A stretch of DNA of 64,000 nt from an uncultured Acidimicrobiales bacterium (GCA_963723995.1 CAVRSZ010000001.1:1581410-1645409); one strand, 5' to 3'; positions 12,726 to 37,473 are shown, numbered from the stretch's first letter. A program made the numbers and translations. The notes: generated by a model from the letters alone, not told the origin.

Positions 12726-12744
12726 GCCGTATTCGACCTCACCG

Positions 12745-15247: not shown

Positions 15248-15356
15248 CACGAGCCGGTAGGCTCATCGGATCAGAGCCCTATCGACGGGGGCCGAACGGC
15301 CCACCGACCTATGCCCGATCTGACCGATCCGTCGGGCCTTGCATGGCGGGTCGGGG

Positions 15357-19487: not shown

Positions 19488-19837
19488 GTCCCGCTCGATC
19501 AGGTCGATACCTTCGATGGTGCCGCCGAGACCGACGTCGGCCAGGTCGGCCAGCTCGGTCAGAGGTCCCGGCCGTGGTGCCGAGACCGGTGGCGTCGACG
19601 GTGTAGCGCATCAGTCGTTTCGGATCCGACGACGACGAGAACAGGCAGCGTCCCCGGGGTGAGGAAGGTGTCACCGACGATGGTCGGCTGCCTCGACCAC
19701 GGTGAGGGCGTGGGCGGTGCCGGCCGACGCCGGGTTCTCCAGCAGGTAGTGGAACTCACCGGGCGACGACGGGTCACCGGGGGCATCGGGCCGGAAGACG
19801 AAGACATCGGAGTCGCTCACCGTGATCACCGTCGTGG

Positions 19838-20359
19838 TCACCGATAGAAGGTCTCGCCGGCGTCGCTGACCAGTACCAGGTCGCCGGGCACCAGATCGAA
19901 GGCGGTGGGCCCGGTCCCGACCGTGAGCGCCGTGCGCATCTCGTGCATGGCGCCGATCTTGGCCGCACCGTCGGAGGCGAACCGGTCGAGATCCACGACC
20001 TTGGCCACGGTGGCTGAGGTGGTCGGGGGATCGAGGGCCAGCCCGGGATCACCGAGGGAGAGCACCTGGCCGGTGCTCCACGAGGTCAGGCCGGGGGTTC
20101 CCGAGGCGACCACCGGGTCGTTGGTCGCCACCCACAACTCCGGTGTCCGCACGTCGACAGTCACGGTGGCCACGGCCGACTCCGTGCCGTCGGTGGCGGT
20201 GTAGGTGAAGGCGTCGGCGCCGCTGTGGCCGTAGTCGGGGCTGTAGGTCAGGGTGCCGTCGCCGTTGTCGGTGACCGTGCCGTTGGTGGGCTGGGTGAAC
20301 GACACGATGGACAGCGGGTCGCCGTTGGGGTCCTCGTCGTTGACCAGCGGGGCGACCAC
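19838..20359 (-). CDS. Adhesin B fragment 4: cadherin-like domain + unknown domain
   Basis: Begins PLVNDEDPNGDPLSIVSFTQPTNGTVTDNGDGTLTYSPDYGHSGADAFTYTATDG. It ends ...DLVLVSDAGETFYR, and the sequence then continues (VTTTVITVSDSDVFVFRPDAPGD...) in another frame. Confidence 0.55.
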   Translation of the reverse strand: MVAPLVNDEDPNGDPLSIVSFTQPTNGTVTDNGDGTLTYSPDYGHSGADAFTYTATDGTESAVATVTVDVRTPELWVATNDPVVASGTPGLTSWSTGQVLSLGDPGLALDPPTTSATVAKVVDLDRFASDGAAKIGAMHEMRTALTVGTGPTAFDLVPGDLVLVSDAGETFYR

Positions 20360-21276
20360 TCGAGGGATGTCGACGGCTGGTCCGCACGCGTGTCGTCGAC
20401 GGCGGATGGGGTCGTGATCGGCGTACCGCCGACAAGATCGATGCCGCGTAGATCTTCGTCGTTGACGTCGAGACCGACGTCGCTGCCGTCGAAGAACAAG
20501 GTGGCGTCACCGGCGGCCAACCCGGTCGGCCCGGCGGTCGTGCGGGTGAGTTCCAGCAGGAAGACGTCCTGGCGGACCACGGCGATGCCATTGTCGCCGA
20601 CGGCGGCGTCGGTGTTGTCGATCGAGACCAGCAGGTCACCGGCGGTGAGGTCGATTCCATCGACTCGCACGGCGGCATCGACCAGATGGATACCGACGAT
20701 GTTCTGGTCGATGGCGACATCGGGTCCATTCAGCAGGACGGTCGGTACCCCGGGGGCAACCAGTGGACCGGCCCCGGTCGGATCCAGGTGGTACACGATC
20801 TTGGAATCCGTCATCAGGACGCTGCCGGCCGGGAGGAGCTGGTCACCGACCATCGTGTCCGACTTCGACCAGCGAGACATCGACCACGGTGCCCAGCGGC
20901 TGGTCGAGGAGCACCGAGAAGGTACCCGAGGTGTAGTCGCCCGGCGTCTGGGGCCGGAACCGGACGACGTCTTTCGACAACGCCTCGGTGGTGGAGGTGT
21001 CCCAGTTGACGAACATTTCGTCGTTGGCCGTGGACAGCAGCAGGTCGCCCGGGAGCAGGCTGACCGTCGGTGAGGCCCCCACGTCGGTCGCCGTCTCGAC
21101 CAGGTCGAGACCGACAAGCACGACGTTGCCATCCTGGCCCTGGGCGTCCAGATCGGCGAGAAGCGAGAACGTGCCACTGGTCGACGGGGGCTCGAATGCC
21201 AGCGACGGGTCACCGAACTCGAGCATCGACCCCGCCGACCACGAACCGAGCCCCGGCGCCCCGCTGGGAGACCCAA
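20248..21276 (-). CDS. Adhesin B fragment 3 (in frame ~20370..20860)
   Basis: The protein-like stretch is MVGDQLLPAGSVLMTDSKIVYHLDPTGAGPLVAPGVPTVLLNGPDVAIDQ...LFFDGSDVGLDVNDEDLRGIDLVGG. Both ends of the ORF are Arg/Pro-rich off-frame sequence. Confidence 0.5.
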   Translation of the reverse strand: MGLPAGRRGSVRGRRGRCSSSVTRRWHSSPRRPVARSRFSPIWTPRARMATSCLSVSTWSRRRPTWGPHRRSACSRATCCCPRPTTKCSSTGTPPPPRRCRKTSSGSGPRRRATTPRVPSRCSSTSRWAPWSMSRWSKSDTMVGDQLLPAGSVLMTDSKIVYHLDPTGAGPLVAPGVPTVLLNGPDVAIDQNIVGIHLVDAAVRVDGIDLTAGDLLVSIDNTDAAVGDNGIAVVRQDVFLLELTRTTAGPTGLAAGDATLFFDGSDVGLDVNDEDLRGIDLVGGTPITTPSAVDDTRADQPSTSLEWSPRWSTTRTPTATRCPSCRSPSPPTARSPTTATAP

Positions 21277-21850
21277 CGTCGGCGGCGGTCGAGAGCCACA
21301 GGGTGGCGGTTTCGGTCAACACCGTGACGGCAGCGGAGAGCTCCGAGGTCGAGGAGAACCCGGTGGCGGCTCCGGTGTCGATGCGGGTGGCGGTGGCCGT
21401 GATCACATCCCCGGCCGATCCGGAGAACACATGGGTCAGTCCGGTGCCGGGGCCGGTCGTGACCGCCGAAACGAACGTCTCGGCCTCCCCGTAGCCGCTC
21501 GGATCGGCACCGGACGGGTTGACGAAGAACTCCACCCGGTACTGGTCGGGGTTGGCCGGCACATCGAGATCGTACGTCGCCGTCACCGTCCCACCCGACT
21601 CCTCGGCCGAGGTGATCACCGGGAAGTTCAGGAGATCATTGGACCCTGAGTCCCCATCGCCGGAGTCGTTGTCCGTTAGGCCGTCGTCCTCGAGATCGAT
21701 CCCGAGGCCGGTGTTGGCCCACACCTCGTTACCGAGCAGGGTGTTGTCGAAGCTGGTCGTGCGGACAGTGATGCCGGCTCCCCCGCTGCCGGCCACGCGG
21801 TTTCCGTCGTTCGGCCCGGTGCCACCGACCAGGTTGCCCACGGCATCCAC
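20843..21850 (-). CDS. Adhesin B fragment 2: end of beta-helix, GIDLEDDGLTDND motif, Ig-like sandwich
   Basis: Contains GLGIDLEDDGLTDNDSGDGDSGSNDLLNFPVITSAEESGGTVTATYDLDVPANPDQYRVEFFVNPSGADPSGYGEAE...ATATRIDTGA, the same cassette seen twice in gene A. Confidence 0.65.
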   Translation of the reverse strand: MDAVGNLVGGTGPNDGNRVAGSGGAGITVRTTSFDNTLLGNEVWANTGLGIDLEDDGLTDNDSGDGDSGSNDLLNFPVITSAEESGGTVTATYDLDVPANPDQYRVEFFVNPSGADPSGYGEAETFVSAVTTGPGTGLTHVFSGSAGDVITATATRIDTGAATGFSSTSELSAAVTVLTETATLWLSTAADVGSPSGAPGLGSWSAGSMLEFGDPSLAFEPPSTSGTFSLLADLDAQGQDGNVVLVGLDLVETATDVGASPTVSLLPGDLLLSTANDEMFVNWDTSTTEALSKDVVRFRPQTPGDYTSGTFSVLLDQPLGTVVDVSLVEVGHDGR

Positions 21851-21869
21851 CGTGACCAGGATCCCGTTG

Positions 21870-24869
21870 TCAGTATTGCCGACGACGGCTACCCGTCACA
21901 TCGAGTCCGACCCAGTTGTTGGTGAGGACGTTGTCGTCGCCGAAAGTGGTGGAGCCGTCGATCTCGAGTCCTTCGTCGGGGAACGAGTGCACGATGAAGC
22001 CGGAGATGGTGCTGTTGTTGGCCCGCAGTGCGAGCCCGGCGGTGGCTCCGACGGCCGAACTTCCATCGAGCTCGACGATTGGGTCGCCGGCCCAGCCTGG
22101 CTGGGTGGTGGCGTCGATCGTGACCGTCGAGGTGATGAGGGGATAGCCCGATGCCGGCGTCAGTGTGTAGGACAGGGGCGAAGCCGAGTACCCGGACTCG
22201 GTGGACGGGATGTTGAAGGTGACCGTATCGACCACCCCCGAAGCGTTGGCCTCCTCGATCGCTGCTCGCAGCGTGCACTCCGGATCGCCCTGGGAGTTGG
22301 TGGCGCCGGTGTCGCACACGTCGTCACCGACGGTGTCGTCGGAGGCGTCGCCGGTGGAGTTGACCACGACGATACTCGGGTCCGGGGTCAGGGCGACCAG
22401 GTGGCCGATCGATCCGGCGGTGGCCGCGACGGTAGCCGTTCGGGGTCCGGCGGCTCCGGCGGCGCCAAGGGTGTCGTCGGCCGAGGCGGCGATGACCTCG
22501 TCGGCCGGCGCTCCACCGGCGGCACTGGTGACATCGGCCCGCTCGTTCATGCCTCCCGGTGGAGTCACGACACCGTCGTCGCGAACGGCGAAGAAGGCGA
22601 TAAGGGTCGCGCTGTCGACGGTGGAGGTGATGGAGGGGGCGGTGACGGCGGCGCCGGAGGAGTTGGCCTGCCCGTTGGAGGCGTCGATCGGGCTTGCGGT
22701 GTCGACCCCGTCATAGACGGTGATGGATCCGGCTGCGGTATCGGTCGATCCGCTGGACAGGGTGAAGCTGTACTGGGCCGGCTCGCTTGCCGTGGCCACC
22801 CGCCAGTACAGGGCCTGGGTGATCCCGTTGGCCCCGAGCGTGTCGATCTCGGTCCAGCCGGCCGGTGGGGTGACGATGCCACCGCCGGTGGCGCTGTAGG
22901 CGATCTGGGCCAGCATCAGATCATCGGTGTCGGTGGTCGACGGGACCGGCAGATCGATGGTGGAGCCGCTGGTATAGGATCCACCGGCGGTCTCGACGGC
23001 AACGAACGTCGGGTCGATGATCACCGGAAGGGTCGGGTCGTAGGAGCCAAGGGTGAAGGCGACGGTGCCGTCGTCACCGATCGCATAGGAGCTGTCGACG
23101 ATGACCGGCTCGCCGTCGATCTCCTGGTAGGTCACGGGAGCGGTGGAGCGGTAGTCGGGTCCCGACTCGGCCTCGATCAGCAGATCGCCGTTCGGCTCGA
23201 TCCGCAGCCCGACGGCACCGTCGAAGTCGAGGGAGATGTCGTCGGGATCGGCCCCCGGTTCGATGACAAAGCTGTACTCGACGTCGCCACCATTGGCCGA
23301 GTAGACGACATCGACCCCGGGTAGGACGTCATCGAATTCGATGGCGTCATCGTCATCGTCATCGCCGGATGCCGCATCCGGCACCTGGGCCTGAGCGGGA
23401 GTCGGATCCGACCCGGGCCCGATCGGCCCGGACGGAGTCCGGCGACGTCCCTTTTCAGCGCCGAGGTCGACGTCGGTCAGAATCGGCGACTCGTCGAGCA
23501 GCCGGCCCACTGGTTCGCCTGCCCGGTCGACCACGTTCATGATCACCGCATCGGCCAATGGCTGCCCTTCGGCCACCAGAGCGACCTCGCCATCACCGAC
23601 GACGGCGTCATAGCCGGCAGTGACAATGGCAAAGTCGACCTCGGTGTCGGCCGAGCCTTCGTTGGCGACGAAGTCGACCCCCGCCGCCGGATCGGCCAGA
23701 CCGTTCAACCACCGGTAGGTTCGATCGCCCGACTCGAACCGGGTGTCGCTCACCATCCCACCGTCGCCGTCAATCAGGAAGGCCAGATCGGTTGGACCGA
23801 AGGGGGCGTTCCCGGCCACGACCACGCCCAGGTCGCGGCCGGTGGCGAGATCGATGCGACGAATCTCGTCGGCCCCGTAGTCGGCGATCCACAGTGCACC
23901 GTCGGGACCGATCACCAGCGACGTGGGAGCCGTCACGATTCCCTCGACCATGGTCTCGACCGTGGCTTCCGGTTCACCTCCGCGGCGAGCACCGGCTTGG
24001 GCATCGAAGGTGACGCGATCGATACGGGCCCCGTCGACCATGGCAACCAGCAGCTCTCCGGTCGGACCGATCACCACGTCGACCGGGCCCGAGCCCGGCC
24101 CGGTGTCGATCAACTGCCGACGGGTGCCGTTCGTGCGGTAGATTCCGACCGTGTCGTCGTTCTGGTAGGTCACCGAAATGAGGCCGTTCGGTCCGACCGC
24201 CAGTCCCCCCGGGTTGTCGAGCCCGTCGTCGATGAGCACACCGAGGAAACGGCCGGTGTCACCGTCGTATTCGAGTACCTGCCCGGTTGCCGCCGAGGTC
24301 ACCAGGAGCGTGCCGGTCGAGCTGAAGGCCAGCCCGCTCGGGTTTCGAAGGCCGCCGGTGCCGGCCGCAACGAACACGTCGACCATGGAGTTGGTGTCGG
24401 GATCGAAGCGGACCACGCGGTCGGTGTCGCCGCCGGCGGCATAGACCAGACCATCGGGGCCGACGGCCAGCGCCCGTGCCGCCCCGAGTTCGCCCTGGCT
24501 CGGATTCAGTTGTCCGGCCTGCGACCCGTCGACCGAGCGGTAGCGGCGGACCAGGTCGACACCATCGAAGCCGGCAACCAGCAGATCGCCGTCCCCGGCG
24601 GCATCCCCGCTCGTGACCGTGGAGCCCGGAGTGGGCGCTGACTGATCCTGGAACGAAGACGTCCCTGCAGCGCCGGAGAAGGTGTCGAATGCCGAGACCG
24701 GGCTCGAGCGCAGGAAAGGGCTGAGACCGGAGGCGGCCGGGGAGACAATCGAGGTGACGACCGACAGGGCGGCGACGATGACCAGCGCCGGACGGATCCG
24801 ATGTCCGAACCGGCGATGGGTCTCAGTTCCGACTGGACGCAATGCGGGCGGGTTGCCGGCGTCGACCAT
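21870..24869 (-). CDS. Adhesin B fragment 1: signal/TM, NHL-type propeller, VIEPGADP domain, CTLRAAIEEANAS + beta-helix start
   Basis: 999 codons, collinear with fragments 1+2 of gene A but lacking the TSP3/FG-GAP insert. It ends ...NNWVGLDVTG, then shifts frame near ~21890 to AVVGNTDNGILVTVDAVGNLVGG. Confidence 0.7.
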   Translation of the reverse strand: MVDAGNPPALRPVGTETHRRFGHRIRPALVIVAALSVVTSIVSPAASGLSPFLRSSPVSAFDTFSGAAGTSSFQDQSAPTPGSTVTSGDAAGDGDLLVAGFDGVDLVRRYRSVDGSQAGQLNPSQGELGAARALAVGPDGLVYAAGGDTDRVVRFDPDTNSMVDVFVAAGTGGLRNPSGLAFSSTGTLLVTSAATGQVLEYDGDTGRFLGVLIDDGLDNPGGLAVGPNGLISVTYQNDDTVGIYRTNGTRRQLIDTGPGSGPVDVVIGPTGELLVAMVDGARIDRVTFDAQAGARRGGEPEATVETMVEGIVTAPTSLVIGPDGALWIADYGADEIRRIDLATGRDLGVVVAGNAPFGPTDLAFLIDGDGGMVSDTRFESGDRTYRWLNGLADPAAGVDFVANEGSADTEVDFAIVTAGYDAVVGDGEVALVAEGQPLADAVIMNVVDRAGEPVGRLLDESPILTDVDLGAEKGRRRTPSGPIGPGSDPTPAQAQVPDAASGDDDDDDAIEFDDVLPGVDVVYSANGGDVEYSFVIEPGADPDDISLDFDGAVGLRIEPNGDLLIEAESGPDYRSTAPVTYQEIDGEPVIVDSSYAIGDDGTVAFTLGSYDPTLPVIIDPTFVAVETAGGSYTSGSTIDLPVPSTTDTDDLMLAQIAYSATGGGIVTPPAGWTEIDTLGANGITQALYWRVATASEPAQYSFTLSSGSTDTAAGSITVYDGVDTASPIDASNGQANSSGAAVTAPSITSTVDSATLIAFFAVRDDGVVTPPGGMNERADVTSAAGGAPADEVIAASADDTLGAAGAAGPRTATVAATAGSIGHLVALTPDPSIVVVNSTGDASDDTVGDDVCDTGATNSQGDPECTLRAAIEEANASGVVDTVTFNIPSTESGYSASPLSYTLTPASGYPLITSTVTIDATTQPGWAGDPIVELDGSSAVGATAGLALRANNSTISGFIVHSFPDEGLEIDGSTTFGDDNVLTNNWVGLDVTGSRRRQY

Positions 24870-25075: not shown

Positions 25076-25738
25076 TTACGGGTTGTTGGTGGTCTGCTCG
25101 GCGTCGAAGGTGAAGGTGGCCGTGGACGACAACCCCTGCACGGCATTCGATGCGGTGTTGGGTAGGGTCACGTTGAAGCAGAGGTTCTCGTTGGCGGTGG
25201 CCGCCAACACCCGGTCACCGGCCTGAGCCCCCTGGGTGGGGTCGCCGACGACATTGGCCGTACCGACGCTGCCGAGAATGCCGGCGTAGATCACCGAGCC
25301 GTCAGCCTGCCAGTTGGCGTCGTCGCAGGTGGTGACACCGGACTTGACCGTCAACACCAGCTCACCGGCCAGGGTGTCCTCGGTGGTGGTCGAGGTCATC
25401 GAGTACCGGAATTCGAGGCTGCCACTGTTCGACACGTTGATCGGGGCCGTGGCCTGATCACCGGGGACCATGTCGGTGGCGGTGACCACCGCCGTGGCCG
25501 GGGCCGCCACCAGGTCGATCGAGCCGGTGGAAAAGGCGTTGGCTCCCACCGCCTGCTGGTCGGTGAACAGCGCCAGCGACGACACGGTGAAGATGCCGCC
25601 GGCCAGGGCCAGGACGGCCAGGCTGGCCAGGATCCTGGTACCGGTTCGCTGCGGTCGGCCCGCCTCCTCATCGTGATCGGCACTCGGCAGCTGAGAGCCG
25701 TCGTTGTCAAGTTCGGGGGGTTGTGTTGTTGGTTTCAT
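25076..25738 (-). CDS. TasA/camelysin-like secreted protein with SipW-type signal peptide (paralogue 4)
   Basis: 220 aa, with 24 differences from the 14509..15171 product, half of them in the first 27 residues. It has the same LALFTDQQAVGANAFSTGSIDL motif. AGGAG lies upstream of the ATG. Confidence 0.8.
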   Translation of the reverse strand: MKPTTQPPELDNDGSQLPSADHDEEAGRPQRTGTRILASLAVLALAGGIFTVSSLALFTDQQAVGANAFSTGSIDLVAAPATAVVTATDMVPGDQATAPINVSNSGSLEFRYSMTSTTTEDTLAGELVLTVKSGVTTCDDANWQADGSVIYAGILGSVGTANVVGDPTQGAQAGDRVLAATANENLCFNVTLPNTASNAVQGLSSTATFTFDAEQTTNNP

Positions 25739-25914: not shown

Positions 25915-27744
25915 TCATGGCGCCCCCAGGAAGGTGAGGTCGGCGTCGGGTCCGAACGTCCCGGGCCGGTCCTGCTGGTCGACGGCGGTTGGATTGCCGT
26001 AGTAGAGGAACAATTCGGTGTCCGTGACCGAGGAGATCGCCGGAACCCGAACCCAGGCCCGGACCGAGCCGGTGGCCGGGTTGTAGCTCTCGATGGTGTG
26101 ATCCAGCCGGGTCACACCATCGGCGGCGGTGATCACCAGGTCGTCCCCGTCGGCCTGGGCTCCGGCCTGGACGTCGGTGTCATCAATGGCCAGATAGAGC
26201 ACGAAGTCGGTGACGTCGGCGTCGACCCGGTCGGCGTCGACCACGATCGGTTTGCGGTAGGCCCAGGTTCCGGCATCGAGCCAGGTTCCGACTTCGACCG
26301 GACCGGCCACGGTGAAGGAGGCAGGGGTGTCGTGGTTGGCCACCTCGGCCGCCAGCCACTCCGGCGACCGCACTGCGGTGACCAGCCGAACCTCGTCGAG
26401 CACGCCGTTGAAGGGGTCGGCCCCACCGGGAGCGGCCCCGATGGCCGTGGCGTCGGTGCTGGCAGGCAGGAGCCCGGCGGCCGGCTGCTGGGCCACCTGG
26501 ACACCATCGATGTAGAGCCGGATGACGGTGCCGTTCCAGGTGGCGGCAAGATGATGCCAGGTCCCGGCGGTGACGGTACCGCCCGACACCGTGACCGGAC
26601 CGTCGGCCGTGGTGTTGACGGTGGCCGAGGCCGTGCCCCCGGCGGCCACCGAGAGATCGAACCAGGTGGCCGCCCCTCGCTTGGTCACCACCACCGAATC
26701 GGCGACCACCGAATCGGCGACCACCCAGGCCGACATGGTCAACGAGCCTCGGCCCCCGAAGTCGACCGAGTCGACCGAGGCCCAGTCGTCGGAGCCGTCA
26801 AAGTCAAGGCCGTAGCCGATCCGTCCGGCAACGAGATCACCGGCCGTCATCGACCCCTGGCTCAGGCCGTCGAGATTGTTGATGGTGGAGTCGTCGATCT
26901 GGGGGGCGGTGCCGGCCGGATCTCGGGCCAGGTGCCACACCCCGGCCGCCTGCGGGGTCCACGTGGCTCTCACATCCTGCTGATCGGGAGCGTCGGCCGC
27001 CCCGAACACCAGGTAGACGGTGGTGTCGACCGACGACGACAGCACCGGCACCCGAACCCAGGTCTGCAACTCACCGGTGCCGGCGTCGAACCGTTCGATC
27101 TCGTGATCGAGCGGTGTCGTGCCGTCGGCGGCCACGAAACGGATGTCGGAGCCATCGGGCTGGGCCTGTACGGCGAGCGAACCATCGGTGATCGACACCA
27201 ACAAGGGGTAGTCGGCGAGATCGGCCTCCACCTGGGCGGCAGGCACCGTGATCGGAATACGACGGGTCCACGGGTCGGCCGAATACCAGGCGGTTCCGGC
27301 CGTACGGTCCTCGAAGTCGCCCAGGGTTCCGGAGTCGAAGTTCTCGGTGAGCAGGAACACGTTCTCGGGATCGTCGAGCACCGGAGCCGGGGAAGGATGA
27401 CCGAAGTACAGCCAGTAGCTGCTGATGCCCTCGGCCTCGATACCGGCCATCAGTCCGGAACAGGATGGTGGTGTCGGTCTGACCCCAGCCCGAGCCATCC
27501 TGCAGGACCCGGTCGAGTTCGATCCAGGCGGTCCCGTCCCAGCGCAGCACCCGAACGTCGGAGCCGTCGCCGACAGCGGCCCCGATGGCGACCAGGGCAT
27601 CGTGGTCGAAGGTGACGGGAACCGTGTAGCCGTTGGGAGCGGCTGCGGTGGAGGTCTCCACGTCGATGCGTTGGCGGAACAGATAGTTCGAGTCCCACCA
27701 CCCTGGGCCGGCCCATTCGATGACCTGCCAGGCGAAGGAGGCAT
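25915..27744 (-). CDS. C-terminal continuation: DUF2341 - LamG/ConA-like - DUF2341
   Basis: In frame from ~27455. Contains WTRRIPITVPAAQVEADLADYPLLVSI...DGSDIRFVAADGTTPLDHEIERFD...TWVRVPVLSS...VYLVFG (DUF2341-like), TAGTWHHLAATWNGTVIRLYIDGVQV (LamG), and a second YRKPIVVDADRV...DFVLYLAI...DHTIESYN...AWVRVPAISS...LFLYYGN. Confidence 0.65.
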   Translation of the reverse strand: MPPSPGRSSNGPAQGGGTRTICSANASTWRPPPQPLPTATRFPSPSTTMPWSPSGPLSATAPTFGCCAGTGPPGSNSTGSCRMARAGVRPTPPSCSGLMAGIEAEGISSYWLYFGHPSPAPVLDDPENVFLLTENFDSGTLGDFEDRTAGTAWYSADPWTRRIPITVPAAQVEADLADYPLLVSITDGSLAVQAQPDGSDIRFVAADGTTPLDHEIERFDAGTGELQTWVRVPVLSSSVDTTVYLVFGAADAPDQQDVRATWTPQAAGVWHLARDPAGTAPQIDDSTINNLDGLSQGSMTAGDLVAGRIGYGLDFDGSDDWASVDSVDFGGRGSLTMSAWVVADSVVADSVVVTKRGAATWFDLSVAAGGTASATVNTTADGPVTVSGGTVTAGTWHHLAATWNGTVIRLYIDGVQVAQQPAAGLLPASTDATAIGAAPGGADPFNGVLDEVRLVTAVRSPEWLAAEVANHDTPASFTVAGPVEVGTWLDAGTWAYRKPIVVDADRVDADVTDFVLYLAIDDTDVQAGAQADGDDLVITAADGVTRLDHTIESYNPATGSVRAWVRVPAISSVTDTELFLYYGNPTAVDQQDRPGTFGPDADLTFLGAP

Positions 27745-29548
27745 TCGACGCCATCACCGCCCGCTCGGCCGTGACCGTGGTCCCGTCGGTGATCTCGAAG
27801 GTGGCGGCCGCCTCACCCACCACGTCGTCGGCCACGTGGTCGGTGCGGCCACCGGCCACCGGGCCGGGCACGGCGACGGTGGAGATGGCGGTGGACCTGG
27901 AGGGGTCGAACGGTTCGACGGCGATCGGCTTCGACGACTCGCCGACGGCGAAGTCGACGACGCCATGCCGGACGGTGGTACCGTCCCGCAGATCGACCAC
28001 CTGCACCCGGACATCGAGCGGATCGCCGGCCACCGATCGGGTCACCTCGACGGTGCTGGAATCGGTCAGCCGGGCTCGGACCAGGCGCTCGCCGATATCG
28101 GCTCCCGTCGAGGCCGAGGTGACCGAGGCCAGCAGGAAGGTGTTGCCGGCTCGAACCGGCGAGCTCAGGACCCCGGAGTTGGCCGTGGCTCCCGAACCGA
28201 GGGAGACGTCAATGGTCTGAACCACGGCATCGGCCGGATCGGCGAAGGTCACCACCTGCCAGGCGAACGAGCGATCGGCGCCCAGGGCGGCCCCGGCCGA
28301 CTCGATGGTCAGATCGGACCCGGTGCCGAGATCGGCCCGGACCAGATCGTCGTACTCGAAGTCGCTGGAGGTCGCCGGGGGCGCGGTGCTCACGGTGACG
28401 AAACTGGCGGTGGGGTCCACGGCAGTCAAGGGCACCGTGACCGAGGGGGCGCCGGTGCCGCTGACCACGCCCCGCTGGACCGACACCCCACAGCCGTATT
28501 CGACCACCGACCACGCCACCACCACCGGCGGCGGTGAGCCGTTGTCGGTGTTGCGCACGATCTCGACCGCCGAGCCGTCGCCGGCCAATTGAACCTGGGC
28601 CGTGCCGTCGGCCGGCTCGTTGCCGCTGCTACGGACCGAGGCGAGCACGAACGACGTCGCCGCATCGACTGCAGTGATGGGCACGGTCACCGTTCCGGTC
28701 ACGGCATGAATCGATTCGCCGTCCTGGACCGAGGCCAGTTGCGGATCGAAACAGTCGGCCGAACCGAAGACGTTGTCGGGGACGGCCTCGGTGGTGGTGA
28801 ACAAGGCCCACGCCACACCTAGTCCGGCCATGGTCAACATCGGGGCCACGCCGAGGGTGGCCAAGCGTCGACGCCGCCGGCCACGGCCGGAGCCTCGGAC
28901 ACGACGACCGAGCCGGGAGGCACCGTCATCGACCCTGTTCCTTGGGCTCGTCGAACCGGCAGGCGACGCACCGACCGGGGAGGCCGACGAGCCGGTCCAG
29001 ATCCAGCGCAGAGCCTGGAACGTGAGCACAATGGTGGCCAGTGCCACCAAGGCCAGTGCCGGCCCGGGCTGGAACACGGTCATGACCCAACCCCCGAGGC
29101 GGGGGTAGATCCAGCGACCAACCAGCTCCTGGCCACCGTCGAGCGGGTAGGGGGCGGCGTCAGGGGCCTCGTTGGCGTCGCCCTGGGTAATGGCGAAGCG
29201 AGAACCACCGTTGGCCTCGATCTCGATCACCCGGTGGGTGATGGGGGCCTCCCCGGGCCGCCTCATGACCAGGATGTCCCCGACGGCCACGGCGCCGGCC
29301 TGACGGGGTTCGGCCACGATCAGGCTCCGAGGGGGTGCGGTCTCGCCCATCGATCCGGTGAGGATGACCACCGGACGGTAGCCGGCGATGAGACCACCCA
29401 CGACGGCGCCGGTGCCCAGGATCGTCGCCACCGAGACCGCGACCAGCAGCCACGACATGACTCGGCGGAGCGGGCTCCGCTTGGCTGTCCGGCGCCCGGC
29501 CGGAGCGGTGTTCCCGCCCGATGTCGTTCGCCTTCGACCCGTTCTCAT
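27071..29548 (-). CDS. Signal peptidase I (ER/SipW type) + passenger, N-terminal two thirds
   Basis: A TM segment (SWLLVAVSVATILGTGAVVGGLIAG) is followed by the SPase boxes VVILTGSMGE (Ser), APITHRV (His) and ITQGDANEAPD. A second TM follows, then an internal signal-like RRRRRLATLGVAPMLTMAGLGVAWALFTTTEAVPDNVFGS (28759..28900). After that come repeated ~110-aa beta-rich units (...SFAWQVV... appears twice). Confidence 0.7.
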   Translation of the reverse strand: MRTGRRRTTSGGNTAPAGRRTAKRSPLRRVMSWLLVAVSVATILGTGAVVGGLIAGYRPVVILTGSMGETAPPRSLIVAEPRQAGAVAVGDILVMRRPGEAPITHRVIEIEANGGSRFAITQGDANEAPDAAPYPLDGGQELVGRWIYPRLGGWVMTVFQPGPALALVALATIVLTFQALRWIWTGSSASPVGASPAGSTSPRNRVDDGASRLGRRVRGSGRGRRRRRLATLGVAPMLTMAGLGVAWALFTTTEAVPDNVFGSADCFDPQLASVQDGESIHAVTGTVTVPITAVDAATSFVLASVRSSGNEPADGTAQVQLAGDGSAVEIVRNTDNGSPPPVVVAWSVVEYGCGVSVQRGVVSGTGAPSVTVPLTAVDPTASFVTVSTAPPATSSDFEYDDLVRADLGTGSDLTIESAGAALGADRSFAWQVVTFADPADAVVQTIDVSLGSGATANSGVLSSPVRAGNTFLLASVTSASTGADIGERLVRARLTDSSTVEVTRSVAGDPLDVRVQVVDLRDGTTVRHGVVDFAVGESSKPIAVEPFDPSRSTAISTVAVPGPVAGGRTDHVADDVVGEAAATFEITDGTTVTAERAVMASNASFAWQVIEWAGPGWWDSNYLFRQRIDVETSTAAAPNGYTVPVTFDHDALVAIGAAVGDGSDVRVLRWDGTAWIELDRVLQDGSGWGQTDTTILFRTDGRYRGRGHQQLLAVLRSSFPGSGARRSRERVPAHRELRLRNPGRLRGPYGRNRLVFGRPVDPSYSDHGACRPGGGRSRRLPLVGVDHRWFARRTGPARWLRHPFRGRRRHDTARSRDRTVRRRHR

Positions 29549-30264
29549 TCCTCGACCTCCAGGTTGGAACCGTTGACGACCGCGTCGGACCGAGTCGCGG
29601 CCGGCGAGTGTTGGGCGAAGACGACCAGCTCGATGTCGAGCCGGGCGTCCTGGGTCTCGTTGGGGGCGGACAGCGGCAACCGGGCTCCAAGACACACCAT
29701 GGTCGACTGGTCGGGCTCCAGCCGCAGTCCCGGTGTGTCGGTCCCGGGTCGACCGAGGATGGGAACCTCATCGCCACCGAGGATGAGGTTGGTGATGTAG
29801 ACCTCATCGGCGGCGGCAATGCCGTCGCGGCATCGTTCGGCTCGCCAGACGTCGTACAGCAACCAGTCGGCCAGCGGCGACGAGGCCGGGGAGGCCGACG
29901 CCGTCATCCAGTATCGGATGGGAAGCGTGCCGGTGTTGCCCACGGCCAGTGCCCCGGTGACCGAGTCGCCCGGTGCCATGTTGGTGGCCGAGAACGGCTG
30001 GGGTGCACTCGGCGTGGTGGGACGTCCATTCAGCACGGAGATGCCATCGACATCGACGGCCTCGCTGACGGCCAGCTCCACCGATCCGGCACCGAGCCGG
30101 TTCCCGGTGAACTCCTCCCGGTCGGCAAAGTTGGCGTCCGACGACAAGGCGCATCGGCTGAGCAACCAGGGCAGGGCCACCACCGCCAGCACCACCAGGA
30201 CGGACACCGAGGGTGACATGCGGACACGGCGAAACGATGTCGGTTCGATCTCGGAACCGGTCAT
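29545..30264 (-). CDS. TasA/camelysin-like secreted protein (paralogue 3, divergent)
   Basis: 239 aa. The hydrophobic segment VSVLVVLAVVALPWLL is followed by SSDANFADREEFTGNRLGAGSVELAV and NMAPGDSVTGALAVGNTGTL. There are ATGA overlaps at both ends. Confidence 0.65.
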   Translation of the reverse strand: MTGSEIEPTSFRRVRMSPSVSVLVVLAVVALPWLLSRCALSSDANFADREEFTGNRLGAGSVELAVSEAVDVDGISVLNGRPTTPSAPQPFSATNMAPGDSVTGALAVGNTGTLPIRYWMTASASPASSPLADWLLYDVWRAERCRDGIAAADEVYITNLILGGDEVPILGRPGTDTPGLRLEPDQSTMVCLGARLPLSAPNETQDARLDIELVVFAQHSPAATRSDAVVNGSNLEVEE

Positions 30265-30869
30265 GCCGGCTTCACCTCCCAGATGAACCCGACGCTGGCG
30301 GCGCGCCCCAGCGCCTCCTCTCGATCCTGGAGGGCGAACCGGACCCGGTAGGTGCGGGAGTCACCCTGATTGAAGAATCGCTCCAGCTCGAGCCGGTTCC
30401 GGTCCAGTTCGTCCAGCGTGCCGTCGAACACCAGCCCGGAGGACACAAAGCCGTCGCAGTCACCGAAACCCCCCGATGGCCCCCGCTCGATGAGCACATC
30501 GAGAAATGGGGCGAGATCGCCGGTGATCTCGGCCTTCATGGTCAGATCGACCGGCACGATGGTTCCGCCGTAGGAGATGTTGATGCACTCCTCGTTGGCT
30601 CGACCGGGAGCCATATCGGTCAGATCGAACAGCGAGCTGCCGTTGTCGTCGTCGGACAGTTCGATGGTCCCCGACGTCACCTCCGATGCGGTCGTGGTGC
30701 CCTGAATGTCCAGGGCCTCGCCCGAACGGCTGATGACGAAGGTGGCGATGAGCAGGGCGGAAAGGGCGGCGGCGAACGCCCGGGCCGTGCCCTGATTGAC
30801 CCAGGTTCCCTGGGCCTCATCCTCCACATCGTTGGATCGGAGGTCTTCGAGGGTCAACGGACGAGCCAC
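30261..30869 (-). CDS. TasA/camelysin-like secreted protein (paralogue 2, divergent)
   Basis: 202 aa. The hydrophobic segment FAAALSALLIATFVI is followed by TTTASEVTSGTIELSD and DMAPGRANEECINISYGG. A GTG start lies 7 nt after an AGGAG that spans the upstream stop codon. Confidence 0.6.
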   Translation of the reverse strand: MARPLTLEDLRSNDVEDEAQGTWVNQGTARAFAAALSALLIATFVISRSGEALDIQGTTTASEVTSGTIELSDDDNGSSLFDLTDMAPGRANEECINISYGGTIVPVDLTMKAEITGDLAPFLDVLIERGPSGGFGDCDGFVSSGLVFDGTLDELDRNRLELERFFNQGDSRTYRVRFALQDREEALGRAASVGFIWEVKPA

Positions 30870-33800: not shown

Positions 33801-33899
33801 CAGGGACACCACGGGAACGAACCGTCCATGACCGATGAGGGCTGGAATACCCGTCCTCACCACGGCGGGTCGGGCCGGGCTGAAGCGTTCCACGTTCAC
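30879..33899 (-). CDS. Fusion protein: SipW/archaeal-type signal peptidase I - polytopic membrane domain - GAF-like - GGDEF - EAL
   Basis: 1006 codons, with a GTGA overlap with the upstream gene. SPase boxes: VVIVSGSMAPVLRPGDVV, GDIITHRV, TKGDANPTPD. About 6-7 hydrophobic helices span aa ~140-365. The GGDEF domain reads RLGGDEFTVLL (nt 31983..32000). The EAL domain carries EVLLRW, AINASP, ELSE, DDFGEG, KLDR, EGVETE and QGYG. Confidence 0.8.
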   Translation of the reverse strand: MNVERFSPARPAVVRTGIPALIGHGRFVPVVSLISWIYLYLAGMLGLWVVIVTLGAGWNPVVIVSGSMAPVLRPGDVVMIEDRPDELLGQRSVITFDRDGDIITHRVFEVLEEKEAYVTKGDANPTPDTDLVPAASVIGAARLVIPLIGLPAVWLGRADLVSLGAFAVLSLAAIGIAVRDLSSRKRRIKALLNERTSTLADQAVRRVRILIAVMITGQYAIDGSRFVIEAVNIGPAQLLALSLLWLAGTNVVSGRLDQVGESQWVGLFQLVADTLLVVLLTTATGGSGIGWVLTALPIVEAAVRYRLAGALVHWMLMAVLTILGRVWILNSIDSPSNQLIGELEQLLDQMSVLLLVVIPGAFLAEQLLGDVILQRRATVDAVARGRLLENVAELGFEVTRIGTALFETLTKSAASLGFDVVDAWARTPTGGWTRIEVSEELYARHLPQPGQPASGLRMVDLPHPEVLVDGSDGDGQEVEGLFEAGLDALVRITLSTDETLIVLRGANFVGRPFDAGPVEALRLLCGQATVALQNRDLVNELKDLHSELEHQALHDALTRLPNRAYFLRELSRELEPEAMAERGPDDMMAVLFLDLNGFKPVNDTLGHDAGDELLKVVATRLQTVADSFGLVARLGGDEFTVLLPRCRGGDASNVASAIHAALAEPIELDQDTVVVGASIGIAFHEDGVDSSEWLRRADAAMYAAKQSSSSRRVSYYHADLDLAEPRRGRLVGEFKRALEHDGLDLVFQPLVSTVGHRIMGAEVLLRWNHPELGALGPGMALQMAEQADLVSELNGWIVHTALGEMSRWPISGERPFTLAINASPAELSSPTLIPNLGDALLLTGVRPSQVVVELSERIVASGDDLEQVVTELVRLGVGLSLDDFGEGRTSLGHLRRLPIRQLKLDRMLVHQACTSDSDRIILNSVVELGHNLGFEVVAEGVETEGHKTAVMAAGADLLQGYGLYRPMTSAELADLLARENIARSARPPIPPAPEAKLAAASTVSPH

Positions 33900-34465
33900 G
33901 GCCTGGCCTCCACGATCAGTGCGAAGTCGGTGTAGCGACCCTCGGCATCGGGGTCATCGAGCAACTCGGCTCGGGCCGCCAGGGTGACTCGGCTTCCCTG
34001 CTCGATTCCCGTTCCCAGAACCAGCCCGTCGGCGTAGCTGCCGTGGGTCTGCCACATCTCGGTCAAGGTGCCGTCCAACGCCGGGTCGGGCGGTGGCCCC
34101 TCGGTCGGACACGGTTCGTCGCTGGTCCACACCTGGAAGCGGATGTAGCGGTCCAGCTCGGTTCCCCCCAATCGACGACCGTGGAGGCGAAGATCGGCTT
34201 CGATCGAACCCCGATAGATCACCTCGACACAGGCGTCGGTGAACGAGCCCGGGTACAGCTCGTCCTCGTTGAACAGCAACTCCACCGCATCCCCGACCTG
34301 GTCGAGTTCGATCGACCCGGCACTGAAGAGTCCCGCGGTCGAGGTCGAGGCCGAGACCTCGGCCTGACTGGTGCGGATGCCGTTGATCACAACGACGCCG
34401 GCGGCCAGCACAACAATGGCGGCCGCCAGCCGACGCCCGGCGGCGAACCAACGTTCCGCCGTCAT
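33896..34465 (-). CDS. TasA/camelysin-like secreted protein (paralogue 1, divergent)
   Basis: 189 aa. The hydrophobic segment LAAAIVVLAAGVVVI is followed by AEVSASTSTAGLFSAGSIELDQ and ELYPGSFTDACVEV. There is an ATGA overlap with the upstream gene. Confidence 0.6.
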   Translation of the reverse strand: MTAERWFAAGRRLAAAIVVLAAGVVVINGIRTSQAEVSASTSTAGLFSAGSIELDQVGDAVELLFNEDELYPGSFTDACVEVIYRGSIEADLRLHGRRLGGTELDRYIRFQVWTSDEPCPTEGPPPDPALDGTLTEMWQTHGSYADGLVLGTGIEQGSRVTLAARAELLDDPDAEGRYTDFALIVEARP

Positions 34466-37400
34466 TGGTCGCCGTCCTGTTCCGCACCGACCGGCGTCTC
34501 CTCGCCCGCTTCGCCGCCACCCGGCGTGGGCCCCTCGACCTCGTTGCCCTCGACCTCGTTCCCGTCGACCTCGCCACCCCCGACCTCGTTCCCGTCGACC
34601 TCGCCACCCCCGACCTCGCTATCCCCGACCTCGCTGCCCTCGACCTCGCTACCCTCGACCTCGTTCCCGTCGACCTCGTTGCCCTCGACCGAGTCGGGGC
34701 TCTCGGTACCCCCCTGGGGGATGCTGGAACCATCTGCCGGGGTCGTGACATCGGCCGCCGTCCCCGGGGTCGCGGCATCACCGACAGCGGCCACGGTCAC
34801 GCCGCCGGCGCCGATGGTGACGAGCTGCCCTGCGCCGACCTCGATCCGCTCGATGGTGAATGCGTCACCGGCGCCGGGAACGGGATCGTCGGGACTTCCG
34901 GCGCCGACCCCGGGGTCGGTCGAACCGGCCGCCGGGGTGATGCGAACGGTGTAGCGACCGGGAACCAGGATCTCGCCGTCAACCGCCGCCCGCCACCGGC
35001 CACCGGGGCCGACCAGCTCGACGGTACCGGCATCGAGACCGGCATCGGTTTCGATTCGCAGCCGGCTCAGAACCAGGGTGGCGTCGTCGGGTATGGGTGC
35101 GACGTGGCGATCGGGCCCCAGGGAGACCTCGATCAGCGCCTCGCCCGACCATGCGGCCACCGTGTCGGGGCGCAGGAATCCGCCGCTACCGTCGCCCTCC
35201 AGCGGTTCCGACCAGGCGTCGGTGTAGACCCGCAGTCGAAGATCGTCCTCGGCCACAAACGGGCCGGCCGATCCGGCGCCGTCGCCCACGTCGTCGTCGA
35301 GAGAGGGAACCAGCACGGTCAGGATGGGAGGGATGGTGGCCGAACCCTGCTCACCGGGCTGAGCCGACGCCGGTCCGGCCACAGGGCCCAGGAACAGGGC
35401 GAGGACGGCGGCCACCGTGGCCACCGCCGCCAGCAGTCTGAGCAAGTTGAGGTCGCTGCGGGAGAAGCCGGTTGACAGATCCTCGGGGTGGGAGTGGGCT
35501 ATCGCCGATTCACCAGCCTGCCACCCGCCGTCCGATCTCGAGTTGTGGAACGATCCCCTTCCGGCCGCATCGTGACCGACCTCGAACGCGTCGTGGGCAC
35601 CGAGGGCACAGTACTCACCGAGGGCACAGTACTCGGTGAGCGCGATCCGGTCGTCGTCGCTCAGCTCCTCGAACTCCATTCCCACCCGCACCAATCCCGA
35701 CTCGTGCCGGGTGGCGGCCCGGACCCGGGCCGTCGTGGCGACGCCGTGCTCGGTGCCGTCGGCCCTCGGTACCGAGAAGCGGATGGAAACGGTCTCGTCC
35801 AGAGCGGGGGCCGATTCGAGCACGGCACCGACGCCGACCGGGGTGACATCCAGGGTGGTTCCCCGCCGGCCGGCCAACGTGATCCCGGCCTCGAGCGGAA
35901 CACGGGGAGCGCGGCGGCGCTGGCGGTGCCATACCAGCGCTCCGAGCACGTCGACCAGGATGTAGGTCGTCGCCAGGGCCACCAGGATGAGCACGGTGCT
36001 GTGCCGACGGGTCATGGCCGGCAACAGCGTGGGGTAGACGGTGTTGAAGGCTCGGGCGGCGAAGGCCACCTCGAAGAAGCTGAAAACCACGACCAGGACC
36101 TGGAGCTGACCCAGTGCGTCGCGACGACCCTGGCTTCGAACACGGTCCCGCCGATCAGGCAGGGGCGACACGGTCGGGGCGAGGGCGGCCAGGTCGGCCC
36201 CCAAGGTTCGCCAGCCGTGACGGGTCCAGTCCCCGAACGACATGATCCCACCCGACAGCAGGCGCCGGGCCGTCATGTTGGCGGCGGCGAAACCAACCAT
36301 GGCCGTCACAACCGTGGTCAACTCGCCCTCAAATGGCAGCCGACCCAGAAGCAGAGCCGCGGCCAGCACCGAAGTGACGGCCAGCTGGCGTATGCCGTAG
36401 GTCAGCGACACCCCGGCGGCCATGGCCGCCCACCGGGCGGTGCGGGTCACACCACGGGTGGTGAAGGCCGCCCCCAGGCTGATCAGGGCCGCCGCGCTGC
36501 GGTCACGGCGAGCCACCAGGTAGGGCTGGAGCGTATCGGGTGCCAGGTCCCGAATGAGGGGCCGCGAATCGTGGCCGGTGGACCAGCCATCCCGATGGAG
36601 GGCGACGGCCCACTCCGGCACCATCCAGTAGGAGGGGGCCTGGTCGACCAGGTCCCTCAGCGCAGCGCGTCGAACCAGCGAAGCCGGGCCCCGCCATGGG
36701 GCAACTCCCCGACTGGCCAGGGCCGGACCGATCAGCTGACGTTCCAGGGCTTCCTCGTCACCACCCCGTTTGAGATGGAACAGCGAGTTGGGATTGAGCA
36801 GACCGACGGCCAGCTGCCGGACGGCAGCACGGTCATCGATCGGCGAGTCGACCACGGCGTCGAACAGTCGGGGCATGGGAACCTGACCCGCCTGCAGCCA
36901 CAACAACCACGCCCCGTCGCCGATGTCGGCCATCGAGGGCAGCGGGCTGACTGCGCTCGAATGGTCGATCCCCAATTCGAGCCGAAGTGCAGTCGTTGAA
37001 TCGAAACGATCGATGACGGTCTGGACATCGGGATCGACCCGGCCGGTCAGCACGGTCGTCGTGCGCTGCCAGCCGGTGACGGCGAGACCGACCATGGTGC
37101 GCTCCAGATCGGTCGCCGTCGACTCGGGACCGACCGTGATCACGACGTCGATCTCATCCCGGTCGATGCGGGAACCGGCGTCGACCGGTCGGCGTTTGGG
37201 CACGACCTGGAATCGAAACAGCAGGAGCTGAACCCACGACCAGATCTCGGCCCACAGCACCGGCAACGACAGGGCCAGGATCCAACCCCGTCCAATGGTG
37301 GTGGTCCGCCAGGCCAGATAACCCAGACCGGCGACGAGCACGACGGCCACGACCAGACGCGTCAGAAGGGTCACATCGACCGGTGCGTCGGGGTCGACCT

Positions 37401-37473
37401 GACGGTGATCGGCGGCCGGGGCCACAAGGCCCGAACGACCGGTGGTCGGTTGATCGGAAGGGGATGCGTGCAC
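34462..37473 (-). CDS. BcsA-like (GT2 fold, catalytic motifs degenerate) membrane protein with PilZ domain and extracellular acidic-repeat C-terminus
   Basis: 1003 codons; GTG start with GAGG 5 nt upstream. The arrangement of TM helices and IDVVITVGPES ... LWLQAGQVP (where DxD is expected) ... ALHRDGWST ... DLAPDTLQPYLVARRDRS (where QxxRW is expected) is collinear with cellulose synthase BcsA as I remember it. PilZ motifs: RRRAPR (RxxxR) and DVTPVG (D-x-S/T-x-x-G), at nt ~35637..35925. A late TM/signal-like segment (LLRLLAAVATVAAVLALFLGPVAGPASA) is followed by ~300 aa ending in EV[EDG]G[NSG] pentapeptide repeats. Confidence 0.65.
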   Translation of the reverse strand: MHASPSDQPTTGRSGLVAPAADHRQVDPDAPVDVTLLTRLVVAVVLVAGLGYLAWRTTTIGRGWILALSLPVLWAEIWSWVQLLLFRFQVVPKRRPVDAGSRIDRDEIDVVITVGPESTATDLERTMVGLAVTGWQRTTTVLTGRVDPDVQTVIDRFDSTTALRLELGIDHSSAVSPLPSMADIGDGAWLLWLQAGQVPMPRLFDAVVDSPIDDRAAVRQLAVGLLNPNSLFHLKRGGDEEALERQLIGPALASRGVAPWRGPASLVRRAALRDLVDQAPSYWMVPEWAVALHRDGWSTGHDSRPLIRDLAPDTLQPYLVARRDRSAAALISLGAAFTTRGVTRTARWAAMAAGVSLTYGIRQLAVTSVLAAALLLGRLPFEGELTTVVTAMVGFAAANMTARRLLSGGIMSFGDWTRHGWRTLGADLAALAPTVSPLPDRRDRVRSQGRRDALGQLQVLVVVFSFFEVAFAARAFNTVYPTLLPAMTRRHSTVLILVALATTYILVDVLGALVWHRQRRRAPRVPLEAGITLAGRRGTTLDVTPVGVGAVLESAPALDETVSIRFSVPRADGTEHGVATTARVRAATRHESGLVRVGMEFEELSDDDRIALTEYCALGEYCALGAHDAFEVGHDAAGRGSFHNSRSDGGWQAGESAIAHSHPEDLSTGFSRSDLNLLRLLAAVATVAAVLALFLGPVAGPASAQPGEQGSATIPPILTVLVPSLDDDVGDGAGSAGPFVAEDDLRLRVYTDAWSEPLEGDGSGGFLRPDTVAAWSGEALIEVSLGPDRHVAPIPDDATLVLSRLRIETDAGLDAGTVELVGPGGRWRAAVDGEILVPGRYTVRITPAAGSTDPGVGAGSPDDPVPGAGDAFTIERIEVGAGQLVTIGAGGVTVAAVGDAATPGTAADVTTPADGSSIPQGGTESPDSVEGNEVDGNEVEGSEVEGSEVGDSEVGGGEVDGNEVGGGEVDGNEVEGNEVEGPTPGGGEAGEETPVGAEQDGDQ
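34531..34690 (-). repeat. About 10.5 tandem copies of a degenerate 15-bp unit (cctcgacctcgttgc-like) encoding EV[EDG]G[NSG] pentapeptides
   Basis: Read directly from the sequence: ...ctcgacctcgttgccctcgacctcgttcccgtcgacctcgccacccccgacctcgttcccgtcgacctcgccacccccgacctcgctatccccgac... Confidence 0.85.
35598..35633 (-). repeat. Perfect 18-bp tandem duplication (caccgagggcacagtact x2), in frame (EYCALG-EYCALG)
   Basis: Read directly from the sequence. It lies immediately C-terminal to the PilZ domain. Confidence 0.95.

Follow-up and report, generated by a model that had tools for sequence, protein, structure and literature searches.

The tapA-sipW-tasA operon of Bacillus subtilis places a signal peptidase of the endoplasmic reticulum (ER)/archaeal type, which uses a Ser-His active site, inside an operon for fibres of the TasA family, and in the substrates of this enzyme P1 is small, P2' is aromatic, P2 is Trp and a ...N.F... 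motif lies downstream (PMC10269814, PMC9674648, PMC4551309). TasA itself is cut at TWA/AF (a slash marks the scissile bond throughout), the Trp at P2 and the Phe at P2' making it a substrate of SipW and a poor substrate of LepB (PMC10269814). Residues 28-38 of TasA form the donor strand that links subunits, and the accessory protein TapA, a minor component with a similar N terminus, is believed to supply the first of these strands (PMC9674648, PMC4551309). The archaeal bundling pili AbpA/AbpB, of the TasA superfamily, likewise consist of a jelly-roll subunit assembled by donor-strand complementation, along with a larger protein which has been proposed to supply the first complementing strand and to bear adhesin domains distally (PMC9245690). 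Here we describe a gene on the minus strand of a 64,000 nucleotide (nt) stretch of the genome of an uncultured Acidimicrobiales bacterium (GCA_963723995.1, CAVRSZ010000001.1:1581410-1645409; hereafter 'the window'), at positions 25915..29548, in which a SipW-type peptidase is joined in one reading frame, through what appears to be an internal signal peptide, to a passenger of around 960 amino acids (aa).

The locus resembles tapA-sipW-tasA in that an ER/archaeal-type Ser-His peptidase lies within a TasA-family operon, the predicted cleavage sites share the residues listed above, and the putative accessory protein has an N terminus like the donor strand found in the major subunit. It differs in that enzyme and accessory protein form one polypeptide, as a result of which the signal peptide is internal (residues ~214-248, after two transmembrane (TM) helices); moreover, no similarity between the passenger and TapA was detected, the host belongs to a high-GC class of the Actinomycetota, and the operon includes a second SipW-type enzyme, fused to GGDEF and EAL domains, and five TasA-like paralogues. 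Unlike the present operon, that of AbpA/AbpB has neither a dedicated peptidase nor a fusion, and the likeness to it is conceptual only, rather than drawn from sequence. SipW-type peptidases, SipW-type signal peptides, TasA-family subunits, DUF2341 and LamG are all already known; the novelty lies in the joining of a peptidase covalently to its predicted cognate substrate via an internal signal peptide, an arrangement conserved across a class. This is apparently undescribed, as no account of a peptidase-substrate fusion was found in the full text of open-access papers, absence there not amounting to proof.

The start codon of the fusion gene, ATG 29548, shares bases with the TGA that ends the upstream TasA-like gene (ATGA), and is preceded at a distance of 7 nt by GGAGG. 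From this codon to around position 27450 the frame is uninterrupted, with zero stop codons between peptidase and passenger, bearing out the view, taken previously from the bare sequence (the 'sequence-only reading'), that both are parts of a single polypeptide. As assembled, the gene is represented by an 825 aa open reading frame (ORF; 27071..29548) and an in-frame remainder within the ORF 25915..27744. The frameshift that had been suspected near 27455 is real in this assembly, and is accounted for by a single extra T at 27449: the window has GATGGCC where DNA alignment with the orthologous loci L004 (84% nt identity) and L002 gives GA-GGCC. Deletion of this T yields a 1210 aa product that aligns without gaps over 1180 residues to the metagenomic protein P0187 (1180 aa, 89% identical), hence the extra base is a lone lesion, either of this assembly or of the strain. 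A programmed frameshift was rejected, as the orthologues are plainly in frame and the shift is not conserved at this site. Frameshifts and stop codons at differing positions are carried by many other public homologues (P0006, P0008, P0011, P0016 and P0023; loci L044 and L051), most of them probably assembly errors.

The fusion is widespread. A word-indexed protein search with residues 1-617 recovered 44 relatives. In around 19 of them the peptidase boxes occur together with the passenger, and these align to 75-99% of the query with 34-68% identity. A scan of a single genome for each GTDB species then gave 75 loci, in which a script tested whether the peptidase motif RPVxxTGSM and the passenger motif WSVVEYxCG shared an open frame; both parts were present in 43 species-representative loci, and 40 of these, many in short-read assemblies, retained them in a single open frame. 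These 40 are all from Acidimicrobiia, Acidimicrobiales or Ilumatobacter-type metagenome-assembled genomes (MAGs), with the exception of one bin labelled Chthoniobacterales. Searching 1.84 billion cluster representatives exhaustively with residues 1-270 brought in around 18 further 50%-identity cluster representatives of the same architecture. Judged by its presence in sequences down to ~31-35% identity, the fusion is old, which contradicts the earlier suggestion of a recent fusion of two genes. That it could be an artefact of assembly or annotation, or confined to one strain, is scarcely credible: the single-base error at 27449 does show that this assembly is not error-free, but the fusion occurs in 40 independent species-level genomes and in P0187, and conserved sequence joins the two parts, so this explanation was refuted.

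A break separating the two parts was found in only two of the 43 loci: L001, in which they lie in different frames that overlap by 16 nt, the passenger starting with GTG, and L051, a MAG with several broken genes, in which a stop codon intervenes. The parts also lie in different frames in L044. These loci bear on the idea that translation of the passenger begins independently, at an internal start or following a change of frame, such that two chains arise without proteolysis. This is possible in L001, and the different frames of L044 and the in-frame TTG, GTG and ATG codons at L229, V233, M236 and M240 of the window protein fit with it; however, L044 has other broken genes, the window has no in-frame start ahead of its RRRRR sequence, meaning an internal start would give a signal peptide lacking an n-region, and 40 loci keep one uninterrupted frame. 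We therefore regard separate translation as very unlikely.

The predicted peptidase domain only just passes the cut-off for TIGR02228, 'signal peptidase I, archaeal type' (52.0 bits against 51.85, a borderline result). Its nearest solved structures are those of human SEC11A and SEC11C; the alignment to SEC11A (7P2P, E 5e-7) brings the S, H and D boxes into register. Given that the TIGR02228 cut-off is reached and the SEC11A and SEC11C boxes align, the domain can be assigned to the ER/archaeal (SipW-like) type rather than the LepB type. Its score of 36.6 against a threshold of 190 with the Bacillus-specific SipW equivalog NF046067 rules out orthology with the SipW of B. subtilis. The boxes recognised by eye in the sequence-only reading were all found again, as LTGSMGE, ITHRV and TQGDANEAPD (aa 121-130), together with the TM helix on either side: the Ser lies in the GSM box, the catalytic His105 is in the HR box, where P-type enzymes have Lys, and a GDxN...D box is present. 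S66, H105, D124 and D130 are invariant among 15 fused homologues, and the peptidase looks active. Hydropathy peaks at aa 30-57 and 155-185 agree with helices at 26-54 and 161-185 in the AlphaFold2 (AF2) model, and these peaks, along with the positive-inside rule, would place the catalytic domain outside the membrane, between TM1 and TM2.

Beyond TM2, a linker ends in GRGRRRRR (to aa 228) and leads into the hydrophobic stretch LATLGVAPMLTMAGLGVAWA, which is followed by LFTTTEAVPDNVFGSADCFD. The succession of an Arg-rich stretch (aa 214-228), a hydrophobic segment (aa 229-248) and the motif-bearing ALFTTTEAVPDNVFGS (aa 248-263), which had been picked out previously, is present at around nt 28760-28909. 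The hydrophobic segment ends GVAWA/LFTTTEAVPDNVFGSADC, with the predicted cut after Ala248 (AWA/LF), between nt 28805 and 28804; this site has Trp at P2 and Phe at P2', as does that of TasA. The motif SLALFTDQQAVGANAFSTGS at the N termini of the TasA-like genes starting at 25738 and 15171 had been proposed to recur in this segment, and the comparisons that follow uphold this.

We anchored 41 fused sequences on an invariant Cys and compared them with 44 TasA-like proteins from the same loci. In the fused sequences, P24-P21 are mostly Arg and P20-P6 form a 15-residue hydrophobic (h-) region, with Pro at P13 in 21 of 41. Some positions around the site differ between the two sets: P5 is Gly in 34/41 fused sequences and V/I in 38/44 TasA-like proteins, P3 is A/V (38/41) against S (42/44), and P2 is Trp (29/41) against L (44/44). 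Others are shared, namely P1 (Ala/Ser 40/41; A 44/44), P1' (Leu 35/41; L 40/44), P2' (Phe/Tyr 36/41; F 43/44), P8' (Val 38/41; V 41/44), P11' (Asn 40/41; N 43/44), P13' (Phe 41/41; F 43/44) and P15' (Thr 34/41; T 39/44), whilst at P18' the Cys found in 41/41 fused sequences is replaced by V/I/L. The conserved positions have identical spacing in both, so that the predicted mature N terminus of the fusion and the TasA-like proteins share the pattern L-[FY]-x5-V-x2-N-x-F-x-T. By contrast with the segment, the linker upstream of it is free to vary, from ~10 to ~90 aa in length and also in sequence. Aligning a profile of the internal segments to one of the TasA-like N termini with hhalign gave a probability of 96.2% (E 2.4e-9), in a register equating AWA/LY..V..N.F.T with SLA/LFTD..V..N.FtTG; as measured by these profiles, the match is far beyond chance.

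A hidden Markov model (HMM) built from the TasA-like N termini only, when searched against 8834 ORFs of the loci, recovered the TasA-like proteins and also hit several fusions at their internal segments and stand-alone passengers at their N termini, in each case at the right position. The latter begin with a segment having n-, h- and c-regions followed by the motif (L043, L047, L049, L050, L052, L053, L060, L063, P0018, P0020 and P0022), an example being that of L043, ...RRDRRWIVGLGVVASAIVAWFAISFA/LFDDTDDVGANTFDTTDC. Unlike in these stand-alone homologues, the signal-like segment of the fusion is not N-terminal, as the peptidase and two TM helices precede its beginning at around residue 214. 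This third hydrophobic segment shows every anatomical feature expected of a cleavable SipW-type signal peptide.

The part of the passenger following the predicted site is unlike known families. AF2 modelling of residues 249-617, with 44 aligned sequences, produced a confident all-beta structure of three similar modules (mean predicted local distance difference test (pLDDT) 92.4, predicted template modelling score (pTM) 0.90). The core has no sequence match in the PDB and belongs to no Pfam or NCBIfam family; the only geometrically sensible Foldseek matches in the PDB were to the C-terminal domain of PCSK9 and the APC-beta domain of apicomplexan perforin-like proteins (TMq ~0.25-0.36), both of which are three-module, pseudo-threefold beta structures. 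The top-ranked matches, to PrgB and integrin, were discarded as meaningless, having root mean square deviations of >30 Å. The passenger was also rejected as a TasA-like subunit, since it does not match PF12389 and its predicted fold is not the TasA jelly-roll; only ~15 residues at its N terminus resemble TasA-like proteins. In both AF2 models, the first ~20 residues past the predicted cut form a low-confidence coil ahead of the confidently folded domain.

Of the tail described in the sequence-only reading, the DUF2341-LamG-DUF2341 arrangement is present, whereas the '~550 aa of repeat-rich sequence' is a ~350 aa domain of three beta-sandwich modules (aa 267-617), after which comes a DUF2341-like module split by the frameshift. 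In the corrected product, PF10102 scores 94.2 bits over two stretches and PF13385 95.1 bits, both reaching the gathering score. The DUF2341/LamG tail appears to be optional, as P0019 and P0025 end directly after the three-module domain. Besides the catalytic residues, C266 and C353 are invariant in the alignment of 15 fused proteins (31-65% identity). Both cysteines (nt 28751-28753 and 28490-28492) are likewise invariant in all fused and stand-alone passengers; C266 is 18 residues past the predicted cut and C353 falls within the WSVVEYxCG motif, making plausible a disulfide between them that would tether the free N-terminal strand to the folded part.

We consider it probable, with some reserve, that the peptidase releases a TapA-like accessory protein, the new N terminus of which mimics the donor strand of the TasA-like proteins. 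The precursor would span the membrane three times, with TM3 acting as an internal signal sequence that restarts Sec translocation, by which step the passenger would be exported. AWA248/L249 would then lie on the same outer face of the membrane as Ser66 and His105, and the enzyme cutting after Ala248 could be the SipW-type peptidase of the same chain, that of a neighbouring chain, or the SipW:GGDEF:EAL enzyme. The cut would free the passenger and leave the 'signal peptide' as the third TM helix of the enzyme. The freed N terminus would be LFTTTEAVPDNVF, patterned like those of mature TasA-like subunits, and this strand might plug into a TasA-like subunit and thereby nucleate or cap the fibre, with the lectin-like DUF2341/LamG modules displayed as an adhesin. 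On this scheme, the fusion would fix both a 1:1 ratio and a shared location for peptidase and fibre-initiating protein, whilst the peptidase would stay available for processing the five TasA-like proteins of the island. The passenger is likened to TapA and AbpB because the TasA-like pattern extends to P15', beyond the needs of cleavage, and because of the lectin-like modules; it is encoded with the peptidase and the likely major subunit, and its N terminus shares the motif of the donor-strand region at identical spacing. The donor-strand role is nevertheless the weakest step of the proposal.

Several observations weigh against this scheme. Cleavage after Ala248, whether in cis or in trans, is a prediction from the protein sequences, as is the self-processing suggested in the sequence-only reading. 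TIGR04088 (cut-off 19 bits) has no match to the internal segment of the window and matches only 4/32 orthologous segments, weakly (best E 0.0024), and TIGR04089 likewise has no match to the window segment and a weak one to 1/32 orthologous segments. However, the 220 aa TasA-like protein of the window itself falls short of the TIGR04088 cut-off (17.4 against 19 bits), hence this model, which is clearly tuned to Firmicutes, is insensitive in this lineage. The AF2 model of aa 1-617 (pLDDT 84.6; a monomer from a shallow alignment) reproduces the layout of three TM segments, as helices at 26-54, 161-185 and 222-251, and shows the linker at 187-223 as disordered. In this model the helix of TM3 runs unbroken as far as residue 251, the site is not placed as a strand against the peptidase domain, and residues 251-263 have pLDDT <50. 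The donor-strand role depends on ~15 residues, since the core resembles neither the TapA nor the TasA fold, and a within- versus between-genome comparison of passenger and TasA-like N termini found no co-variation (p ~0.3; 34 pairs, with the window's own pair out of register). Given the frameshift, the C-terminal modules may not be produced by this strain.

The uninterrupted TM3 helix, with the site outside the active site, and the failure of TIGR04088 to score the window segment would also fit an arrangement in which TM3 is never cut and serves as a permanent anchor, the passenger being a tethered extracellular domain that might, for example, recruit or hold TasA-like subunits, sense the matrix or anchor the fibre to the membrane. 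The motif is weaker in some members, such as P0025 and L037, and B. subtilis SipW has been reported to have a second, peptidase-independent role (Terra et al. 2012, as cited in PMC4551309). Yet the small residues at P3 and P1, the Gly at P5 and the short h-region are conserved whilst the adjoining linker varies, in the stand-alone homologues this segment serves as a genuine signal peptide at the N terminus, and a TasA-like mature pattern at P1'-P15' is hard to explain in a sequence that is never an N terminus; furthermore, the LPXTG-type C-terminal sorting signal of some fusions (P0145) implies release from the membrane. A permanent anchor thus seems rather unlikely, and release of the passenger by cleavage is preferred.

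Table 1. Features of the fusion gene and of three genes of the same operon, with positions in the window.
Feature	Position (nt)	Strand	Evidence or remark
Whole gene: SipW-type peptidase, predicted internal signal peptide and passenger	25915..29548	-	1210 aa after removing extra T
Arg-rich cytoplasmic N-terminal tail, aa 1-30	29459..29548	-	
TM1, aa 31-56, N-in/C-out peptidase anchor	29381..29458	-	hydropathy; AF2 helix 26-54
Extracytoplasmic catalytic domain, S26B SipW/SEC11-like	29069..29380	-	TIGR02228; SEC11A match; invariant residues
Catalytic boxes: Ser66; His105; GDANEAPD	29351-29353; 29234-29236; 29159-29182	-	
TM2, aa 161-185, predicted to bring chain back to cytoplasm	28994..29068	-	hydropathy; AF2 helix 161-185
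Cytoplasmic linker, aa 186-228, predicted disordered, ending in conserved RRRRR n-region (P24-P21)	28865..28993	-	
Internal h- and c-regions, aa 229-248, LATLGVAPMLTMAGLGVAWA	28805..28864	-	41-sequence frequencies; hhalign; analogy with TasA TWA/AF (PMC10269814)
Predicted mature N terminus, aa 249-266, LFTTTEAVPDNVFGSADC, ending at invariant Cys266	28751..28804	-	motif; low-pLDDT coil
Passenger core, aa 267-617, three all-beta repeat modules	27698..28750	-	AF2; no family match
First DUF2341-like module, aa 618-715 of corrected product, split by frameshift	27403..27697	-	by eye and homologue alignment; unscored by Pfam
Extra base (T on coding strand), shifts frame	27449	-	absent from orthologues
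DUF2341 (PF10102), aa 798-862 of corrected product	26962..27156	-	Pfam
Laminin_G_3/concanavalin-A-like lectin domain (PF13385), aa 917-1065	26353..26799	-	Pfam
C-terminal DUF2341 module, second PF10102 stretch	25993..26265	-	coordinates set by reading the sequence
Upstream TasA-like paralogue, 239 aa, signal motif ...A/NFAD..F.GN.LGAG.V[DE]L, translationally coupled to fusion	29545..30264	-	
Downstream TasA/camelysin-family protein, 220 aa, N-terminal signal SSLA/LFTDQQAVGANAFSTG	25076..25738	-	PF12389 E 8.8e-10
First SipW-type peptidase with multi-TM region, GGDEF and EAL, 1006 aa	30879..33899	-	TIGR02228 76.5 bits

The fusion gene occupies a fixed place in a conserved order of genes: a 189 aa TasA-like protein, SipW:GGDEF:EAL, TasA-like proteins of 202 aa and 239 aa, the fusion, the 220 aa TasA/camelysin protein and a large DUF7948/NHL protein. 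The 220 aa protein is likely to be the major fibre subunit. In total the island has five TasA-like paralogues, all on the minus strand (33896..34465, 30261..30869, 29545..30264, 25076..25738 and 14509..15171), which differ from one another in their versions of the signal and N-terminal motif; the N-terminal halves of the 25076 and 14509 copies are nearly identical. The SipW:GGDEF:EAL fusion is found at the same operon position in around 40 Acidimicrobiia loci, and ties the processing of matrix-protein signal peptides to the turnover of cyclic di-GMP (c-di-GMP). Just upstream of the TasA-like/SipW cluster, at 34462..37473 on the minus strand, is a 1003 aa protein with a PilZ (c-di-GMP-binding) domain and no other recognised domain. 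Downstream, in the same orientation (3730..24869, minus strand), is a run of very large predicted surface proteins, including a 2002 aa beta-helix/NosD protein, a 985 aa FG-GAP/DUF7948 protein, a 542 aa NHL protein, a 1376 aa cadherin-like/LamG protein and a 999 aa NHL/DUF7948 protein. The whole ~35 kb region looks like a matrix or adhesion island.

The peptidase and its cargo are combined in other ways elsewhere. In L058, L059 and L061 the second peptidase of the operon stands alone, with a TasA-like gene directly after it, and in L043 the peptidase is again alone, the passenger being encoded by a separate gene elsewhere in the cluster, with its signal at the N terminus. In L064 (4710..5804, corresponding to P0078) and P0071, the peptidase is joined directly to a TasA/camelysin-family protein via the signal of the latter, ISSLA/LFTDSEIVSGDSF, the family of P0071 being confirmed by the Pfam model PF12389; fusions of this second kind may have originated by deletion between two similar signal-coding segments. 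Further SipW-type peptidases carry cargo behind an internal signal-like segment, with an LPRTG-type C terminus in P0145 and a C-terminal TM helix in P0116. P0179 is a SipW-type peptidase fusion with the motif TGA/YFTDAGSANFG, and P0077 has two peptidase domains and a cupredoxin. On the basis of P0071, P0078, P0145, P0116, P0179 and P0077, the fusion of enzyme and cargo looks to be recurrent in the Actinomycetota. A tandem double peptidase lacking any cargo is also found (P0146).

Other systems share individual aspects of this arrangement. SEC11, with archaeal Sec11b (MEROPS S26B), gives the best match of solved structure, with Ser, His and Asp boxes aligned, but acts on separate substrates within a multi-subunit complex; we know of no SEC11 that carries its own substrate, and none was found in the literature searched. 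LexA and UmuD (family S24, in clan SF as is S26) are Ser-dependent and cut their own polypeptide in cis or in trans. They differ from the fusion in their Ser-Lys dyad, their cytoplasmic location and their cleavage of a regulatory linker instead of a signal peptide, and no membership of this family is claimed. In viral polyproteins, internal signal peptides occur as hydrophobic segments in mid-precursor that restart translocation and are cut on the exoplasmic side. One of the papers on such cases is PMC4974537. Whereas viral polyproteins are cut by a separate host peptidase, here the peptidase is the N-terminal part of the same precursor.

Signal peptidases are usually regarded as acting on separate precursors, and here one is joined to the bearer of its predicted cognate signal peptide. 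If cleavage were confirmed, this would to our knowledge be the first known signal peptidase that makes its own substrate, and it would provide a natural system for studying ER-type substrate recognition, with enzyme and substrate fixed at 1:1 in one membrane protein. It would also offer a clue to the nucleation and anchoring of TasA-type fibres outside the Firmicutes, and the fusion would act as a 'Rosetta stone' for pairing orphan SipW-type peptidases with their substrates. The public annotation of these ~1200 aa fusions is merely 'signal peptidase I', which is corrected here. A whole class of the Actinomycetota, most of its members uncultured, shares the architecture, and there are parallel fusions to other cargoes. 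A stricter proposal, which we think improbable, is that the protein is an obligate self-processing module, in which the cut occurs in cis, the signal is kept as TM3 and the substrate window is then freed for TasA-like subunits. Were such cis self-processing true, adhesin release and subunit maturation would be coupled in space, time and 1:1 stoichiometry, and the SipW fusions P0071, P0078, P0145, P0077 and P0179 would represent a general, unrecognised 'enzyme plus cargo' precursor route in the Actinomycetota.

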